Below, piece by piece: positions 12,037-53,960 of a stretch of DNA of 64,000 bases. The notes beneath the pieces were generated by a model. It worked only from the letters and a program-made list of their open reading frames with translations, was not told the origin of the DNA and ran no database searches. Every line of letters begins with the position of its first letter. Within the stretch, counting starts at the first letter, position 1. Both the position numbers and the translations under genes were made by a program. The stretch lies in contig CAWBMV010000017.1 in the NCBI GenBank assembly GCA_963789955.1, positions 1 through 64,000 of the forward strand. The letters are read 5' to 3'. Origin of the DNA: an uncultured Candidatus Rokubacteria bacterium (GTDB taxonomy: Bacteria > Methylomirabilota > Methylomirabilia > Rokubacteriales > CSP1-6).

Positions 12037-14164
<2,128 letters not shown>

Positions 14165-30024: not shown

Positions 30025-30321
30025 CTAGTTGGGGAGGTTGGCGGCGGGGGGTTGGGGGGCGGGGGGTGGAGGGAGGAGCTGATAGGCCGGGTGGGCGGGG
30101 CGGCTTCGAAGGACTGTGATCGTGATGTTTTGGGAGAGGAGCCAGTCCTGGACAGAGGACCAGCTTCGCGGATCGTCGCGCTCCCAGCGCGCGATCGCTT
30201 CGGCCTCGATCGCGATGGCCGTGCGATTTCGCAAGAGGGCGCTGATGACGAGCCGCTTCAGGTCGGTCGGACTGGTTTCGAGCTCGCGAAGCAGATTTTC
30301 GGTCGCGGCGTCCATATCCAC
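30025..30321 (-). CDS. small hypothetical protein in a low-GC islet. C-terminal Pro-rich tail encoded by the G-rich tract
   Basis: 'MDMDAATENLLRELETSPTDLKRLVISALLRNRTAIAIEAEAIARWERDDPRSWSSVQDWLLSQNITI..'. Local GC is clearly lower than the surroundings. Confidence 0.3.
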   Translation of the reverse strand: MDMDAATENLLRELETSPTDLKRLVISALLRNRTAIAIEAEAIARWERDDPRSWSSVQDWLLSQNITITVLRSRPAHPAYQLLPPPPAPQPPAANLPN

Positions 30322-30411
30322 GCGAAGCCTAGCCTAACCGTCATGTCAATGGCGCGGGGATAAGAGTTCACGACATCCAGGGTCGGTATGCCAGTATCGA
30401 CGAAAGGCGCC

Positions 30412-30717
30412 ATGGCTGAACCGTCACATCCGTCGGGGCGTCCCCTCGAGCTCGAAGATCGGCGCTCCCGCGCCCCCGCCGAAACAGCGTCGAAGAGACC
30501 GATGCCGGTGTCGCCGCTCGCGATGGAGCGATGGGCGATCGTGCTCAGGCGTCATCGTGCAGGCTACGCGGGCTACGAGCAGGTCGATCCTCGGGCGCTC
30601 GCGCTGGCGCGGCGCAGTCATCCGGCGGACACGAGCATGTTGAAGTCGCTGGTGGGTCGTCTCCGGTCGCTTGGACAGGGCCGCAAGGGCGAGCCCAGGC
30701 CGTCGAAGTCGGCGTGA
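30412..30717 (+). CDS. small Arg-rich hypothetical protein translationally coupled to the patatin gene
   Basis: ATG 30412 with gaaagg RBS. Stop TGA overlaps the GTG of the downstream gene (gGTGAg). Confidence 0.4.
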   Translation: MAEPSHPSGRPLELEDRRSRAPAETASKRPMPVSPLAMERWAIVLRRHRAGYAGYEQVDPRALALARRSHPADTSMLKSLVGRLRSLGQGRKGEPRPSKSA

Positions 30718-33399
30718 GCGCTGAGCGGGCTCACCAGCCGGCGCAGACGCCGCCGACGGCGGCTCCGCCTGCCACGGACAACCTCGTGGGGCTTGCCATG
30801 TCCGGCGGCGGCATCCGAAGCGCGACCTTCGGGCTCGGCGCGCTCCAGGCTCTCCAGAAGCTCGGGCTGCTCGGGATCTTCGACTATGTGTCCACGGTGT
30901 CGGGCGGCGGCTTCACCGGGGCCTGGTGGAGCGCCTGGCTGTCGCGAGCCGAGCGGCAGCCGAGAGATCTCTTTCCCGAGGCCGAGGACATCGAGCCGAG
31001 CCGACGGCCGTCCACGCTCCTCACCGCTCAGGATTCGTCGAAGCCGCCGGACGAGTCGCGGGCCGCGCGCGATCCGATTCACCATCTCCGTCTCTTCGCC
31101 AACTATCTGACGCCGCGCCGCGGCGCCTTGAGCGCCGACACCTGGCGCGCGGTCACGTTCTACGTGCGGAGCCTCGTCTTCAACTGGCTCGTGCTGGTGC
31201 CAATGCTCCTGGTGGTGGTCATGGCGGCGCAGCTCTACTTCGTCGCCTGGAACCGGGACGTCGCCATGGGCTTCGCGTGCTCGACGCCCGAGGGCGACGA
31301 CGTGACCTACCAGGTGCTGTGGACCCTCTGCGAGGACGCCGACCTGACCCACGGCCAGGTGCTCTGGGCCCGGGTCGCGTATGCGGCAGCGCCACTCGTG
31401 ATTCTCCTCGTGGCGATGGCGGCCGTATCGATCCTGTGGCTTCTCCACGGCACGTCGACACCGTGGCTGGCGCTTGTTCGGCTTGCTGACGCTCTTCGGA
31501 TTCGCGGCGTTCCTCGCGGAGCGAGTGAACAGCGGGGCGACCGGCCCCTCGTGGCTGTCAGTGCCCGGCCTGTCCCTGGTGGCGGCCGGGCTCGTCGCAG
31601 TCGCGCATGTCGTGAAGCTGGTGACGACGGCCAGGGTGAACGGCCACGTCCCGCACGATGCGCATCGCACGACCCTCGCTCAGTGGAACAGCGGCCTGCT
31701 CATGATCACGGTGCTGCTCGCTCTTTGCCTGGCGGTCGCCGGGTTCGGCCACGAGATCGTCTGGTTCTTCTTTTATCCGAAGACGGGACGGGTGTGGTCC
31801 GCCGTTCGTCAGGCCGGAGGCTGGGGCGCGGTCGTCGTGGCGGCGGCGAGCGCGGCGTGGACCGCCTACCAGGCCGCGCCGTCGGGTCGAGCCAAGGACA
31901 GCGCCGAGCCGCAGAGCCGGACGACGCAAGTGGTGTTCCTGGTCGCGCCCTACGTCGTGCTGGGCGTCCTGGTCCTGCTCCTGGCGTACGCGGCGCGGAA
32001 GAGCATCGTCGCGGTCGCGATCGACCTCGACGTCGCGGAGGCGCTCTCGTACGGGGTGATCGCGGGAGCCGTCGTGCAGCTCGTGTTCGCCATCTCGGAG
32101 CTTCGACGCAGGCGCTTGCCCGGCGTCAACTACCGCGCGTGGATTCTCGTCGCGCTCGCGATCGTCGGCAGCGGGAGCCAGGCGATGTTCCTCTGGCGCT
32201 TCGACGACGAGAGCGTGACGTTCACGCTCTTCTACGTCGGGGTCGCGGAAATCCTGCTGGCGGTCGCCGCCGTGGTGGGCTTGGGCTGGATGTCGGATCC
32301 GAACGGGCTCTCGATGCACGCCTTCTACAAGGCGCGTCTGGTGCGGGCGTACCTCGGAGCGTCGAATCCCGACCGCCGCGGCGAGCAGGTGACCGACGCC
32401 GTACCGGGCGACGACGTACCGCTCAGGAGCCTCTGCAATCACGACCGCGGCGCGCCGTACCATCTCGTCAACACGACCCTGAACCTCGTGGCCAGCGTCG
32501 ATCTCGCGACCGCCCAGCGCTCGGCCGCCAACTTCGTGCTCTCGAGCTATTACTGCGGCTCGGCGCGCACGGGCTACCGGCGGACCGACGAGTACATGGG
32601 CGGCGAGCTCACACTCGGCACGGCCGCGGCGATCTCGGGAGCGGCCGCGAGCCCCAACATGGGCTCACGAACCCCGAGCATGCCCCTCGTGGTGCTCCTG
32701 GCGCTCGTGAACGCGCGGCTCGGCTTCTGGGCTCCGACGCCGTACGCCGCGCGCTGGCGCGAGCCTCTCGCGGCGCTGTGGCCCTTCTATCTCCTCAGCG
32801 AAGCGCTGTCGCAGACCACGGACCTGTCGACCTACTGCTATCTGACGGACGGCGGTCACTTCGACAACACGGGCCTCTATCCGCTGGTCGAGCGCGGCTG
32901 CCGCTACATCGTGCTGCTCGACTGCGGCGCCGACCCCGGGCCGTGTTTCGCCGATCTGGGCGACGCGATCCGCCGCTGCCGCATCGATTTCGGCGCCGAA
33001 ATCTCGCTGGGCGTCCAGGGCTTTCTGGATCACGCGCCGAACAACGGCCTCGCGGCCCGGCACGTGATCGCCGGCAAGATCCTCTATCGCCAGGAGCACT
33101 GGGATCAGCTCGGCTTCGCCGCTCAGAGCGACGCCGACCGCACCGGCGTCATCGTCTGGGTCAAGCCGGCCGTGACGGCGGACGACGCGGCCGACGTCCG
33201 CCAGTACAAGCTGGAGAATCCCGACTTCCCGCATCAGACGACCGTCGATCAGTGGTACGACGAGGCGCAGTTCGAGAGCTATCGCAAGCTCGCGTACGAC
33301 AGCGTGACCAATGCCCTGCGCCCGTGCGTTCAACCGGGTCCGCTCGGGGCGGCCCACGTCCAGGCGTTCTTCAGAAGCCTCGAAGCGCAGTATCCCTAG
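30714..33399 (+). CDS. patatin-like phospholipase with a roughly 550-aa polytopic membrane domain inserted between the Ser and Asp catalytic motifs (one +1 frameshift near 31470)
   Basis: 'LAMSGGGIRSATFGLGALQAL' (GGGxR oxyanion hole), 'YVSTVSGGG' (nucleophilic Ser), 10 or more predicted TM helices, then 'YLTDGGHFDNTGLYPL' (DGG catalytic Asp motif). The N-terminal part is in ORF 30531.. and the remainder in ORF 31474..33399. Confidence 0.7.
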
Positions 33400-33432
33400 C
33401 TCAAGACGCTTCTCAGCCGGCGGGCTGCAACT

Positions 33433-34691
33433 TCAGTCGCGGCTTCGCCAGGGACGTGTGATGAGTCGGGCGCCGCGTTGCCAGGACAGGTAGGCCCAGG
33501 CCCACTCGAACAGCACGAGGAAGCGATTGCGAAAGCCGATCAGGAACATGATGTGCACGAAGAGCCACGCGAGCCACGCGATCAGGCCCGAGAGCTGGAT
33601 GCCGCCGACGACCGCGACGGCCGCGGCGCGCCCGATGGTCGCCATGGTTCCGCGATCGCGGTAGCGAAAGGCGCGAGTCGGCCGGCCGCTCAGACGTCGC
33701 AGCACGTTGTCCGCCGCGCGCCGGCCCTGCTGGATCGCGACGGGGGCCAGCCCCGGGAGCGGCGCGCCCGATGGGCCGCGACAGACGCTCATATCCCCGA
33801 TGACGAACACCTCCGGGTGACCCGCGATCGAAAGATCCGCTTCGACGGGGACGCGACCGGCCCGATCGAGCGTGATGCCCAGGGTCCGGGCGAGCGGCGA
33901 CGCCGCCACCCCCGCGGCCCAGAGCACGGTGCGCGCGCGAATCTGCTCGCCGCCGAGCCAGACCGCGTCGGGGGTGACTCGCGTGACGGTCGTTCCGGTG
34001 CGGACCTCGACACCGATGCGCTCGAGCGCATCCTGAGCGCGGCCGCTCAGCGGCTCCGGAAAGGCGCTGAGGATTCTGGCGACCGCCCTCGACGAGGACG
34101 ATGCGCGCCTTGGTCGGATCGATGACGCGAAAATCGCGCGCGATGGTCTGGCGTGAGATCTCGCCGAGCGCGCCGGCCAGCTCCACGCCGGTGGGACCGC
34201 CGCCGACGACCACGAAGGTGAGCAGCGCGCGCTGCTCGGCGCCGTCCGTCTCACGCTCGGCGGATTCGTACGCGAGGAGCACCCGGCGGCGGATCTCGAG
34301 CGCGTCTTCGAGCGTCTTCAGACCGGGAGCGAACGGCTTCCCAGTCCTCGTGGCCGAAGTACGAATGGCTGGCGCCCGCCGCGAGGATGAGCGCGTCGTA
34401 GCCGATCTCGCCGCGATCGAGCGCGAGCCGCCGCGCGCCGAGATCGATTCGCTGGACCTCCGCCAGGAGCACCGTGACGTTCCGGGCGCGGCGGAGCACC
34501 GAGCGCAGCGGCGCCGCGATGTCGGACGCGTTCAGCGCCGCGGTCGCGACCTGGTAGAGGAGCGGCTGAAACAGATGGTGATTGCGTCGGTCCAGCAGGG
34601 TGACCCGCACGGGCCGATCCGCGAGCGCGCGGGCCGCGTTGAGCCCGCCGAAGCCACCGCCCACCACGACCACGTGGGGACGGTCGGCCAC
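33433..34691 (-). pseudogene. type II NADH:quinone oxidoreductase (NDH-2) with two frameshifts
   Basis: 'HVVVVGGGFGGLNAAR' (first FAD motif) in 34251..34691. '[20 protein letters not shown]' in 33413..34282. C-terminal part with 'VFVIGDMS' and TM tail in 33433..34254. Confidence 0.7.
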
Positions 34692-34775
34692 GTCAGGAAC
34701 CGAGGTTCGGCGCGGCGGTGAGAAGAACGGCGAGCGGCCCGCGCGCCGGCTCGCGGGCCGCCATCCGGCGCGACA

Positions 34776-41939: not shown

Positions 41940-43305
41940 ATGAGCCTGCAATCGGTCAATCCAGCGACCGGGGAAGTCCTCGAGACGTTCACCGCGACTT
42001 CGAGCCGCGAGCTCGACCGCATCGTCGCGCAGAGCCACGCGGCGTTCCTCGAGTGGCGCACCGTGCCCTTCAAGGTGCGCGCCGAGCGGATGCGCGGGGC
42101 GGCGCAGATCCTGCGGCGCCGCCGGGCGGAGTTCGCCCGCACGATGACGCTCGAGATGGGCAAGCCGATCACGCAGGGGGAGGCCGAAGCCGACAAGTGC
42201 GCGTGGGTATGCGACTACTACGCGGACTCGGCCGAGGGCTTCCTGGCCGTCCAGCCGCGCGAGACCGACGCGAAGAAGAGCTACGTGCGCTTCGATCCGC
42301 TGGGTGTCGTGCTCGCGGTCATGCCCTGGAACTTCCCGTTCTGGCAGGTGTTCCGCTTCGCCGCGCCGGCGCTCATGGCCGGCAACGCGGGCGTCCTGAA
42401 GCACGCCTCGAACGTTCCGCGCTGCGCGCTCCAGATCGAGGAGGTGTTCCGCGAGGCGGGATTCCCGCGCGGGCTCTTCTCGACCGCGCTGATCGAGTCG
42501 TCGGCCGTCGCCGGCCTGATCGACGACCCGCGCATCGTCGCCGTCACCCTCACGGGCAGCGAGCTGGCGGGCAGCAAGGTCGCCGAGCGGGCAGGGAAGG
42601 CGCTCAAGAAGACGGTGCTCGAGCTCGGCGGCAGCGATCCGTTCATCGTCCTCGAGGACGCCGATCTCGACGCGTGCGGCCAACGTCGCCGCCGACGCGC
42701 GCCTGGTCAACAGCGGCCAGAGCTGCATCGCGGCCAAGCGGTTCATCGTCGTCGACGCGGTGGCCGAGAAGTTCATCCCGAAGTTCGTCGACCAGCTGCG
42801 CTCGCGCCGCATGGGCGATCCGCTGGCCCGCGAGACGCAGATCGGACCTCAGGCGCGTGTCGAGCTGCGCGACGAGCTGCACCGCCAGGTCGAGGAGTCA
42901 GTCAAGCGTGGGGCCCAGCGTCTGCTCGGCGGCGAGCTCCCGCGCGGCAAGGGCGCGTTCTATCCCGCGACGTTGCTCTCGGCGGTGGACAAGGGCATGC
43001 CGGCCTTCGACGAGGAGACGTTCGGGCCGGTGGCCGCGGTGATTCGCGCCAAGGACGAGACGGATGCGGTGCGTCTGGCCAACGACTCGCAATTCGGGCT
43101 GGGCGCGGCGCTGTGGACCAGGGACCACGCGCGCGCCGAGCGCCTCGCGGCGGCGATCGAAGCGGGCGCGGTGTTCGTCAACGGTCTGGTGAAGTCGGAT
43201 CCGCGGCTGCCGTTCGGCGGCATCAAGAAATCGGGTTACGGGCGCGAGCTCTCGGAGTACGGCATCCGCGAGTTCGTCAACATCAAGTCCGTCTGGATGG
43301 CCTGA
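41940..43305 (+). CDS. NAD(P)-dependent aldehyde dehydrogenase (succinate-semialdehyde dehydrogenase-like), interrupted by a single-base insertion near 42675
   Basis: 'LELGGSDPFIV' (catalytic Glu region). Then 'gacgcgTgcggccaac' breaks 'DAAANVAADARLVNSGQSCIAAKRF' (catalytic Cys) into another frame. The C-terminal part is ORF 42760..43305. RBS 'ggaaggtgggagg' before ATG 41940. Confidence 0.75.
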
Positions 43306-52303: not shown

Positions 52304-53960
52304 GTGAACGAACCGCGGGAGCCGGGGCCCTCCAGCGCCGCACGAGAGTCGCGAAGCCCGGCGCCGCTGACCCGGATGCTGATCAGGCTCGGCGCGCTGG
52401 TGCTCATCGGAGCGCTCCTCTTCGTTTTCCATGGGATCCCCTCGTACGTCAAGCCATGGTCGCAGGCGATCATCAACGGCATCGTCAAGTACACGTACCG
52501 GCAGGACGGGCAGGCGGAAACCACCGTCGTTCTCTTCCGAGAGAGCAATCTTCGCGATCTGAAGGAGCCCTACCCGGTCTCGTATCAGCGCCACGCCATG
52601 GTGCTCGACGCGATCGCGTCGTATCAGCCGAGCGCGGTATTCATGGATTTCGTCTTCATGGACCAGCGCCAGGGGATTGGGGATCTGCGCCAGGCCATCT
52701 GCGACTTGCGTGACGCCGAAGATCCCTGTCTATCTCGCGGTGCTCGAACCCATGAAGCGCCCGGAGAAGGCGGGCGAGCCTTGGGTATTCGAATGCGCGA
52801 TTCAGGTGAGCGCCCAGATGGCGGCGGTGGTGGGGACCAGCGGCGTCCTGACGTACGCTCACGGGGTCACCGTCTACCAAGACGCGCAGAAGCACGAGGG
52901 CAAGACGTTCCTCCCCACGCCCGCGTTCGCCATGGCCTCGTCGAAATTGCAGATGGAGCCGAGCGACGCGCAGGACATGGAAATCATCTGGGGTAACGGC
53001 GTCGCGAAGCTGAACGAGCACTGGATGAGCGCGTGCGCGCGCGCCGGCACCTGGCTCTCTCATCTCGTCGGTATCTTCTCGAACGACCCTTTGAAGTCGG
53101 TGAAGCTGCAATGCCCGTACACGCGGACCATCACCGTGGGCCAGCTCCTGCTCTCGTCGGGCGACAAAGAGCTGGCGGACGCGATCCACGGCAGTGCGGT
53201 GTTCTACGGGGCCGCCTTCGATCTCACCGGTGACCGCGTCGCCTCGCCGGTCTTCCAGGAGCTGCCGGGCGTCTATCTGCACGCGATGGCCTACGACAAT
53301 CTCGTGACGTTCCACACCGACTACAAGCGGGCGGAGCGTCAGCTCCTGATTCCCTCGTTGATCGGCCGAAACATCTCCGTTCCGCTCACCGGCGTCGTCG
53401 ACGCCATCCTCCTGCTCGTCACCGTCACCATTCTCCTCCTCGTCGAAGAGCCGCCCGTTCCCGTCCAGACGCTCCGCGCGCGCTTCACGCAGATGAGGCC
53501 CGCGCGCAAGTGGATCGTGCTCGGGCTCATCGCCTCGCTGGTGATCGGCGCGATCAAGGCGGACGCCAGTCTCTTGGCGGCGGGAGGTCTCTTGCTCCTC
53601 ATGATCGCCATCACCCTGCTCGATCTCGCGCCACCGGCCGAACGGCCTCCTGAGAGCCTGCAGGGATTTGTCGTGCGCCGGATTCTGTCTCTCGTCGTCC
53701 CGATCGTCGCGGTGTTGGCGTTCATCGGGATCGACCGTGGACTCGGTCTCGACGCCGCGCTGCTTCTGGTGGCCGTGCCCGGATACTTCATCTACAAGGT
53801 CGTCGTCGGCCGCGATCTGCTCTTCGCGGCGACGGCCGTGCTGCTGGTCCTGGCGGCGGTCGTTCTCGTGTCATCCGCCGGTCAACCTCGGCCCGCGCAA
53901 CGTGATCACGTACGTGGCGTTCTTCGAGGTGGCTCGAACGCTGCTCAAGCATGCGGATGA
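52304..53960 (+). CDS. CHASE2 domain membrane sensor protein, frameshifted near 52720. C-terminal end uncertain
   Basis: N-terminal TM then extracytoplasmic CHASE2-like region split between ORFs 52304..52996 and 52677..53960. 4 or more C-terminal TM helices. The frame appears to change again near 53880. Confidence 0.55.

Follow-up and report, generated by a model that had tools for sequence, protein, structure and literature searches.

The locus analysed here raises the question of whether a patatin-like active site that is divided in sequence by a polytopic membrane domain belongs to one gene and one enzyme, and of what such an enzyme would be used for by the cell. It is located in a window of 64,000 nucleotides, the whole stretch of DNA that was analysed. 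An initial annotation had described the active-site motifs, a short overlapping ORF upstream and a frameshift near position 31470, and all these sequence features have been found where it had placed them.

Gene layout and reading frame

The features of the locus, all on the plus strand, are the following:

30412..30717, plus strand: small upstream ORF of 101 aa, basic and without membrane helix; its TGA overlaps the lipase GTG
30714-33399, plus strand: lipase gene, encoding an 894-aa protein once the inserted base 31473 is removed
30714..31472, plus strand: 5' part of the lipase gene in frame 0, residues 1-253, covering the N-terminal half of the catalytic domain and the membrane helices as far as the start of helix 3
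30804..30818, plus strand: GGGIR oxyanion-hole motif, residues 31-35, inside the Pfam Patatin match (residues 27-82)
30900..30902, plus strand: codon of the predicted nucleophile Ser63, within S-T-V-S-G-G-G
31134..32292, plus strand: membrane insert, residues 141-526, ten long helices, with the inserted base 31473 inside
31473..31473, plus strand: inserted base C that shifts the reading frame, GGCG[C]TTG versus contig L001
31474..33399, plus strand: 3' part of the lipase gene in frame 1, residues 254-894, TAG stop
32293..33396, plus strand: C-terminal soluble catalytic half, residues 527-894
32839-32868, plus strand: YLTDGGHFDN, with the codon of the predicted catalytic Asp712 at 32848..32850

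The GTG start codon of the lipase gene (30714-30716) and the TGA stop codon of the 101-aa ORF (30715-30717) form the 4-nt start/stop overlap that had been annotated, at 30714-30717. The frameshift has been assigned to one extra C at 31473, both from the third-position GC plot and from a DNA alignment with contig L001. Up to about 31470 the coding frame is frame 0, with a third-position GC of 0.84-0.98, and past this point it is frame 1, with 0.84-0.96; base 31473 is the sole indel within the lipase gene in the alignment with L001, which is 97.9% identical in DNA. The corrected 894-aa protein aligns gap-free and with 98% identity to an intact homologue of the same length, P0001. This homologue and nine others, the ten closest relatives, are all intact and collinear with it, at 891-974 aa, and the sequence at the junction reads through to TPWLALFGLL, which is common to them.

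It had been considered initially that the frameshift could hide a boundary between two independent genes. In such a case the first would encode the N-terminal patatin fragment, small and soluble, and the second a separate membrane protein. In the raw window the region is indeed covered by two ORFs in different frames. However, both active-site halves and the membrane block are found in one ORF in more than 100 homologues, the close relatives all have a single ORF of 891-902 aa, and the junction is translated without gaps, as in the closest relatives, with neither a stop codon nor a start context. This reading, which retains practically no probability, has already been refuted: the lipase is encoded by a single gene and the frameshift does not split two genes.

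Origin of the frameshift

The insertion at 31473 most likely arose in sequencing or assembly, because several other frameshifts are present in the window. Two further 1-nt insertions (34081 and 34332) were found in the NDH-2 gene adjoining the lipase, the frame of an aldehyde dehydrogenase gene, which is intact in L003, changes at about 42675, a PQQ-type dehydrogenase gene shows shifts at about 12330 and 12620, and another shift is located near 52664. At least three other frameshifts were confirmed by comparison with intact relatives in neighbouring genes, and still more are probably present elsewhere in it. The automatic frameshift scans of the window give a lower bound, as known cases were missed because of a chance stop 72 nt upstream of the junction.

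The lipase gene is under purifying selection on both sides of the shift. Synonymous to non-synonymous substitutions on the two sides were 12:5 and 22:10 with respect to L001, and 65:30 and 158:58 with respect to L002, and an excess of non-synonymous changes downstream of 31473 was not found in either comparison. The alternative that the gene is here a true and recently inactivated pseudogene, the NDH-2 gene likewise, so that a truncated N-terminal product or nothing would be made, is considered unlikely. The frameshift is present in the sequence as given, the NDH-2 gene next door has two more 1-nt insertions, and none of the three insertions (31473, 34081 and 34332) is located in a long homopolymer. 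Nevertheless, distant and unrelated genes of the window are also shifted (those at ~42675, ~12330, 12620 and near 52664), which indicates assembly-wide indel errors, the excess of synonymous and third-position changes is undiminished 3' of the shift, no in-frame stops or other lesions occur across the 2.7 kb of the gene, and none of the ten closest relatives is interrupted. Programmed frameshifting was rejected, as the extra base is absent from every relative and unrelated genes of the window are shifted similarly.

Catalytic motifs and fold

Both halves of the patatin active site proposed in the initial annotation, GGGIR and TVSGG (Ser63) on one side and DGG (Asp712) on the other, are present and conserved without exception in 35 homologues with 41-90% identity to the query. 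Invariant positions in this set are G31, G32, G33 and R35, the segment S60-G66, which includes Ser63 (T-V-S-G-G), and D712 and G713 of D712-G713-G714. This invariance across the family makes the DGG segment presumably catalytic. In the nucleophile elbow, the first Gly of the classical G-x-S-x-G is replaced by Thr throughout the family. The conserved sequence supports the assignment of the protein as a patatin-superfamily Ser/Asp lipase, with a catalytic domain interrupted by a polytopic membrane module.

The Pfam Patatin model (PF01734) recognises the protein above its gathering score (35.6 versus 27.7 bits), with only profile positions 1-54 of 191 matched; when the insert was removed, the score was 38 bits and positions 1-70 were matched. 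The PLA2_B model (PF01735) remained below threshold (7.4 bits versus a cut-off of 23, E 1.7), with the N-terminal motif alone. Neither a C2 domain nor any other domain beside Patatin was found in the Pfam scan of the lipase, and nothing was matched in the NCBIfam scan of the corrected lipase and the small ORF. The catalytic domain is preceded by 26 residues only.

The characteristic alpha/beta fold of the patatin/cPLA2 superfamily was found, and in its fold the model resembles cytosolic PLA2 more than it does patatin or CapV. The closest structural match of the catalytic domain is to the group IV enzymes (PDB 5ixc, cPLA2-delta; 1cjy, cPLA2-alpha), and most of it is contributed by the C-terminal half. 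This likeness of the model to cPLA2 is structural only and does not extend to the sequence-profile level: a profile built from the family alignment, searched against the PDB, matched cPLA2-delta and VipD only weakly and only in the N-terminal part, and a solved relative of the C-terminal half was not detectable by sequence. The Ser63 segment aligns with the ISGS nucleophile segment of cPLA2-delta, and Asp712 is placed opposite its VDAAYF segment in a sub-threshold alignment. The spacing between Ser63 and Asp712 is 649 residues, or 263 with the insert removed, which is close to the 286 counted for cPLA2-delta. In patatin and bacterial patatin-like lipases this spacing is about 140-200 residues.

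Membrane module and topology

The membrane part is wholly alpha-helical in the AlphaFold model. Helices 1-5 comprise residues 141-178, 213-246, 250-271, 283-304 and 314-353, helices 6-10 comprise residues 359-387, 402-436, 438-464, 473-494 and 501-526, and the hydropathy peaks agree with them. The at least ten helices that had been predicted between the dyad halves are present (ten), but the dyad residues are separated by 649 residues and not by about 550, and the block takes up only about 385 aa (141-526) of this spacing. Residues 527-711 form a soluble catalytic core outside the membrane block. The pLDDT of the model falls below 50 at residues 591-603, 643-653, 699-707 and 712-715, around the active-site loops.

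The best-conserved part of the family is the C-terminal half (residues 527-894), with a mean column conservation of 0.76 for residues 527-735 and 0.64 for residues 736-860. Membrane helices 2-10, with values of 0.28-0.48, are far below the catalytic halves (0.76-0.84). Two segments at the junctions, PIHHLRLFANYLTPR and DPNxLSxHxFYKARLVRAYLGASN, are strongly conserved. The weak conservation of the helices fits a mere anchor as well as a lipid-access module.

The mean number of K+R residues is 1.0, 3.7, 1.5 and 13.9 in the inside loops and 0.7, 0.6, 0.5 and 0.4 in the outside loops. The assembled catalytic domain would be located on the cytoplasmic face of the inner membrane because the protein has no signal peptide, an even number of helices and positive-inside loops. 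A hydrophobic segment before GGGxR was found in 3 of the 35 sequences and is absent in this protein. In 17 of the 35 sequences the first outside loop contains exactly two Cys; in the remaining 18 it has none.

Family size and distribution

The arrangement of Ser, membrane insert and DGG, for which a search among homologues had been suggested, is family-wide: all three motifs are kept in 115 of the top 120 homologues, with a Ser-Asp spacing of 649-1008 aa and about 8-17 hydrophobic segments. The protein of this locus, described at first as giant, has the shortest spacing among those 115 and, with its 894 aa, is at the short end of its family. The family consists of 6,500 clusters at 50% identity (E<=1e-30) and occurs in many phyla, with at least 582 species genomes that carry a member. 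The initial annotation had also admitted that the protein might align to a known, widespread family with a non-catalytic DGG-like segment or a membrane block derived from a separate fused gene. It does align to the 6,500 clusters; in that family, however, the DGG segment shows no variation, and one gene always encodes the membrane block together with the active-site motifs.

Members occur widely among bacteria of soil and water, and cultured Methylobacterium, Azospirillum, Luteimonas, Massilia and Variovorax are among their hosts. In the longest homologues (1,390-1,773 aa), Pfam shows nothing besides Patatin, and for their N-terminal extension of about 270 aa a relative was not found in the PDB. 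Database labels are just 'patatin-like' or 'hypothetical', no curated model covering the family was found, and a description of it was not found in full-text literature searches on patatin/cPLA2 membrane lipases. Members are often left as 'hypothetical' because Pfam sees just the first 54 residues of the domain, which is a lesson for the annotation of such lipases.

Genomic context

The previous statement that this is not a standard CBASS stands. PADLOC gave no match for the lipase or the small ORF, no cyclase or E1/E2 gene was found in the syntenic loci, and no cyclase was detected among 92 neighbours of diverse homologues. A CBASS phospholipase effector of the CapV/CapE type was rejected on the lack of both a cyclase partner and a PADLOC match. 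When all the ORFs within 5 kb of the gene were clustered at 84 loci, no conserved partner gene was found, and the largest clusters consisted of antisense shadow ORFs of the lipase or of lineage-specific neighbours. The flanking genes are heterogeneous and metabolic; the 92 neighbours of diverse homologues belong to 133 Pfam families, each seen at most five times. Relatives of 90-98% identity keep synteny with hydrolase, NDH-2, DLH and amidohydrolase genes. The family has zero copies in phage records and one homologue in 2.9 million viral contigs, and plasmid copies are mostly found on large, non-mobilizable replicons.

A defence or immunity reading of the lipase, the 'effector or immunity-type module' offered initially as a hypothesis, is not supported, given a widespread family with no conserved partner in 84 loci, metabolic flanks and no phage copies. 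A stand-alone abortive-infection or defence effector, silent until the bundle senses a phage-induced membrane perturbation and then destroying the inner membrane, is very unlikely. Conserved partners are also missing for single-gene defence proteins. Nevertheless, in addition to the lack of a PADLOC match and of a conserved sensor gene, the neighbours are overwhelmingly metabolic, copies are almost absent from viral contigs, the plasmid replicons that carry the gene are mostly not mobilizable, close relatives keep it in the same core-like synteny, and its distribution over so many phyla looks like that of a broadly retained cellular gene.

Proposed role of the helix bundle

The protein is probably an integral inner-membrane serine lipase with a cytoplasmic catalytic domain, in which the helix bundle would serve as an anchor and probably for lipid access, with a housekeeping or stress role. 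The catalytic domain is split in sequence into an N-terminal piece with GGGxR and Ser63 and a C-terminal piece with Asp712, and in the model both pieces fold together into the cPLA2-like domain. The ten-helix bundle, inserted between them shortly after the nucleophile helix, would anchor this domain against the inner leaflet. Together with the conserved junction segments, it probably replaces the soluble cap and lid of cPLA2, and acyl chains of lipids would reach the Ser/Asp dyad straight from the bilayer. Its likely role is to deacylate membrane lipids of its own cell, as housekeeping or under stress, with an activity of the phospholipase A or lysophospholipase type.

More tentatively, and with doubts that exceed our confidence, the bundle may be a membrane-embedded substitute for the cap and lid that works as a lateral gate for bilayer lipids, in a family that would be a large bacterial sister group of eukaryotic cPLA2 and be controlled by the state of the membrane (packing, potential or damage) and not by cytosolic recruitment. 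If this were true, it would be the first intramembrane-access lipase of the patatin/cPLA2 superfamily.

By analogy with LplT-Aas, the ten-helix insert could also be a lipid transporter or scramblase that brings lysolipids from the outer leaflet or the periplasm to the cytoplasmic lipase fused to it. Several polar or charged residues in the helices or beside them, namely GFGH(E/D) in helix 5, the APSGxxKD loop, E462 and R474, are kept across the family, and a bundle of at least ten helices exceeds the needs of an anchor. This function is nonetheless regarded as quite improbable, and the anchored lipase with probable lipid access is the reading retained below.

Comparison with known lipases

Patatin/cPLA2 lipases are known as soluble enzymes that are recruited or activated by calcium and the C2 domain (cPLA2), ubiquitin (ExoU) or cyclic nucleotides (CapV), whereas in the protein of this locus the catalytic machinery is permanently built around a polytopic membrane domain. 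Cytosolic PLA2 is eukaryotic, soluble and membrane-recruited, with a soluble cap and lid; the family described here is bacterial, carries a ten-helix bundle built into the catalytic domain and lacks the C2 domain used by most cPLA2 paralogues for calcium-dependent recruitment. Pat17, CapV/CapE, ExoU and VipD are also soluble, unlike this membrane-embedded lipase, which matches the N-terminal third alone of the Patatin profile. CapV/CapE need an adjacent cyclase, which is lacking here, and ExoU and VipD are secreted effectors.

PNPLA6/NTE and PNPLA7 are eukaryotic patatin lysophospholipases, permanently tethered to a membrane and with a cytosolic catalytic domain, by which a cell turns over its own phospholipids and lysophospholipids, and they may offer the closest functional analogy. 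Their catalytic domain is, however, anchored from outside by one N-terminal helix, and neither such a helix nor their cyclic-nucleotide-binding domains (Pfam) are present here. The type Vd proteins PlpD/FplA have a C-terminal outer-membrane beta-barrel (16-strand in PlpD) and a POTRA domain, with the lipase facing outward; neither domain was found by Pfam in this lipase, which has instead an alpha-helical inner-membrane bundle inside the catalytic domain.

Tight control would be required for a lipase that never leaves the inner leaflet of its own cell; no regulator was found. Studying a single member in detail would establish a new architectural class among the membrane lipases of bacteria and would reveal how a phospholipase can be kept at the inner leaflet without harm to the cell. 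The family may possibly also clarify the origin of the eukaryotic cPLA2 fold.

Small upstream ORF

The 101-aa ORF, said initially to be coupled to the lipase gene by overlap, has proved to be a real gene by its substitutions, which are mostly at third codon positions (positions 3/1/2: 11/4/0 versus L001, 26/11/6 versus L002 and 30/16/13 versus L003), and gene calling also predicted it in L001 and L002. With an alternative ATG start at 30388 it would be 109 aa long. It had no Pfam, NCBIfam or PADLOC match, and its AlphaFold model (three helices, pTM 0.23) was too poor to be used. The ORF was not found beside 80 diverse lipase family members, and a search of 5.8 billion proteins gave 37 homologues, each at least 51% identical. 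Judging from these sequence comparisons, it is a real coding sequence and an orphan confined to the narrow immediate clade, and this ORF, translationally coupled to the lipase gene, would be a lineage-specific addition.

Identification of a membrane lipase gene with a single inserted base

The G+C content of the window is 65-72% and, because long spurious ORFs are common at high G+C, the true reading frames were searched by third-position GC (GC3). The coding signal was located in frame 0 from about 30710 to 31430 (GC3 0.84-0.98) and in frame 1 from about 31430 to 33399 (GC3 0.84-0.96). Therefore, the two ORFs obtained by mechanical listing over this region (30531-33461 and 31474-33399) are fragments of a single coding region that is interrupted by a +1 shift near 31470. 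When 30714-31472 was joined to 31474-33399, a lipase of 894 amino acids was obtained, in which all the motifs quoted in the initial annotation are present:

Lipase residues 31-35, GGGIR motif
Lipase residues 60-66, STVSGGG, with Ser63
YLTDGGHFDN motif, containing Asp712 (coordinates verified)
Window 30714 (+), GTG start of the lipase gene, overlapping the TGA (30715-30717) of a 101-aa ORF beginning at 30412

A search of 5.8 billion proteins has revealed intact relatives of 891-902 aa and 72-98% identity, including P0001 (894 aa, 98% identity), to which the corrected lipase aligns without gaps over the junction, at ...TPWLALFGLL.... The window and the P0001 contig (L001) share 97.9% DNA identity over 6.6 kb, and the sole indel difference in the lipase gene is one extra C at 31473, GGCG[C]TTG. 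The excess of synonymous over non-synonymous substitutions was equal before and after the shift, both against L001 (12:5 and 22:10) and against the related locus L002 (65:30 and 158:58), which is consistent with an assembly error. A very recent genuine inactivation, by which the extra base would have left the gene dead in this strain, is unlikely, and on these comparisons the single inserted base is most likely of technical origin. Programmed frameshifting was excluded, as was the presence of two genes in the region.

Frameshifts are also present in other genes of the window, so the indels are a property of the assembly and not of the lipase gene:

33433-34691 (-), NDH-2 (type II NADH dehydrogenase) gene, convergent to the lipase gene and read in three frames, with two 1-nt insertions (34081 and 34332) relative to L001-L003, in which it is intact (417-422 aa)
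41940-43302 (+), aldehyde dehydrogenase gene, frame change at about 42675, confirmed against the intact gene in L003
About 12330 and about 12620 (+), two frame changes in a PQQ-type dehydrogenase, detected by eye
Near 52664 (+), another frame switch, heuristic candidate
Near 13498 and 21342, candidate frameshifts, heuristic only

The indel rate of the assembly seems to be roughly one per 8 kb. Compared with L001, the window also has a 3-nt indel (GCT) at 34749-34751, between the NDH-2 and DLH genes, in a GC-rich, palindrome-like intergenic stretch.

Predicted structure and relation to cytosolic phospholipases A2

The lipase matched the Pfam Patatin model over no more than its first 54 positions (lipase residues 27-82, 35.6 bits; gathering score 27.7 bits), and NCBIfam and PADLOC scans left it unmatched. 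Its structure was modelled with AlphaFold2 from an alignment of 35 sequences (pLDDT 75, pTM 0.72), and the model contained the following elements:

Residues 25-77, small N-terminal beta-alpha-beta-alpha unit
Residues 92-118, disordered acidic linker
Residues 121-129, short conserved helix
Residues 141 to 526, ten long helices
Residues 527-894, alpha/beta C-terminal region

Structural comparison of the lipase model (two values per row)
cPLA2-delta (5ixc): 21.7; 327
cPLA2-alpha (1cjy): 21.1; 364
CapE: 17.6; 244
PlpD: 16.9; 217
Patatin (9kh6, 1oxw): 16.7, 15.1; 249, 260
CapV: 16.0; 257
iPLA2-beta: 15.0; 244
VipD: 14.4; 241

These values indicate that the two halves separated in the sequence form one lipase domain, nearest to cytosolic PLA2. 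The split catalytic domain noticed in the initial annotation is confirmed, the Ser63 and Asp712 sides flanking a ten-helix block in the model. Without this block the Ser-Asp spacing is 263 residues, compared to the 286 that the alignment gives for cPLA2-delta. By sequence too, cPLA2-delta was the nearest protein of solved structure (E about 0.002, over the GGGxR...SG segment), and a second, sub-threshold stretch of the alignment pairs CYLTDGGHFDNT with LCLVDAAYFINT. The Pfam PLA2_B model did not match the lipase (7.4 bits), which places it outside the cPLA2 sequence family; the enzyme is cPLA2-like by its predicted fold, not by sequence-family membership.

Proposed topology and mechanism

The lipase is of the single-polypeptide Ser/Asp type, with a patatin/cPLA2 fold and a ten-helix insert shortly past the nucleophile helix. 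No hydrophobic segment precedes GGGxR in the window lipase or in 32 of 35 homologues, and the helix count is even. Mean Lys+Arg contents were 1.0, 3.7, 1.5 and 13.9 in the predicted cytoplasmic loops, and lower (0.7, 0.6, 0.5 and 0.4) in the predicted outward loops. In the first outward loop (residues 179-212), 17 of 35 sequences have exactly two Cys and the other 18 have none, the pattern that would be expected for a periplasmic disulfide. From these four features together, both catalytic halves should be cytoplasmic, held at the inner leaflet.

Soluble patatin and cPLA2 structures have helical cap elements, and the insert probably occupies their place. With the catalytic domain presumably fixed to the inner leaflet, the insert and the highly conserved junction segments could plausibly provide a path for acyl chains from the bilayer into the active site. 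The enzyme probably turns over or repairs membrane lipids of the cell itself, as phospholipase A or lysophospholipase, and eukaryotic PNPLA6/NTE would be its closest functional analogy. In the alignment, G31-G33, R35, S63, D712 and G713 are invariant; conservation is high (0.76-0.84) in the catalytic halves and two junction segments, takes a moderate value of 0.67 in helix 1 and drops to 0.28-0.48 over helices 2-10. A lipid transporter fused to a lipase, in which the helices would have a function of their own, seems rather improbable.

Size and distribution of the family

All three motifs were found in 115 of the top 120 homologues, with Ser-Asp spacings of 649-1008 aa, the shortest being that of the window lipase, and about 8-17 hydrophobic segments between both residues. 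When 1.84 billion cluster representatives were scanned exhaustively with HMMER, 16,823 clusters were retrieved at E<=1e-3; the stricter thresholds E<=1e-10 and E<=1e-30 left 11,401 and 6,500. A scan with one genome per species revealed at least 582 genomes carrying the family, the best hit being from Rokubacteria. The best 80 of these loci also come from Acidobacteriota, Gemmatimonadota, Nitrospirota, Proteobacteria, Planctomycetota, Verrucomicrobiota, Bacteroidota and others, including the cultured carriers Luteimonas sp. R10, Massilia aurea, Variovorax sp., Caballeronia choica and Marinobacter sp. Copies were also found in 42 plasmid records, for the most part large non-mobilizable replicons from Rhizobium, Methylobacterium, Burkholderia and similar genera, and are annotated as 'hypothetical protein' or 'patatin-like phospholipase family protein'. 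No copy was found in 50,697 phage records, and one was found among 2.9 million viral contigs (L087 5001-6776; IMGVR_UViG_3300038300_000076, 62 kb; 30% identity), on a contig that may be either viral or a cellular fragment classified wrongly.

Full-text literature searches retrieved no description of the family, which is very large but apparently undescribed. The window locus is an ordinary member, and the enzymes of this family are of a well-known kind with a new architecture. Some homologues (P0052, P0067, P0098, P0104, P0118 and P0119) share a conserved N-terminal extension of 270-325 residues that resembles an alpha/beta domain. No sequence match to it was obtained in Pfam or the PDB, and it may have a regulatory or sensory function.

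Genomic context

The small upstream ORF (30412-30717, +) is a genuine gene, judging from substitutions among relatives concentrated at third codon positions, gene calls in independent metagenomes and the conserved blocks SGRPLELEDRR, SPLxMERWAIVLRRHRAGYxGYEQVD and SLVGRLRSL. It has only 37 homologues, each at least 51% identical, and was found beside none of 80 diverse family members. In the related loci L003 and L004 a 22-nt deletion alters its 3' end, and the overlap with the lipase start is about 17 nt instead of 4 nt. Its structure prediction was uninformative. The coupling to the lipase proposed initially holds as to the overlap, but this is a clade-specific detail; in this lineage the ORF product may regulate the lipase or serve as its chaperone, and the ORF is not among the family-defining features. 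Upstream of it, across a conserved intergenic region of 90 bp, lies another orphan gene restricted to the clade, which is conserved in L002-L004 (78-85% identity) and was found in none of the 80 diverse loci:

30025-30321 (-), divergent 98-aa ORF

In relatives at 90-98% identity the lipase neighbours are unchanged (alpha/beta hydrolase, divergent 98-101-aa ORF, small upstream ORF, NDH-2, dienelactone hydrolase, amidohydrolase, VanZ and further genes). Beyond such lineage-specific blocks no neighbour protein family recurred across 84 loci, and the closest large neighbours of diverse homologues (92) fell into 133 Pfam families, each seen at most five times. Among neighbours, PADLOC matched little beyond a HerA/mad8-like ATPase, present at five related loci of Nitrospira. 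This pattern is neither that of a defence island nor that of a multi-gene system, and the defence or immunity module suggested by the initial annotation is unsupported. A suicide effector acting alone, for which no partner gene would be expected, is very unlikely.

In Nitrospira (L047 6205-7839, and likewise L030, L048, L050 and L053), the membrane lipase gene is preceded by that of another lipase, about 480-540 aa long, lipoprotein-like and without membrane insert, which shares the motif subtype (SGGGSRAAT...SVSGG...DGGLFDN; Ser-Asp about 210 aa), and is followed by the convergent gene of the 833-aa HerA/mad8-like ATPase.
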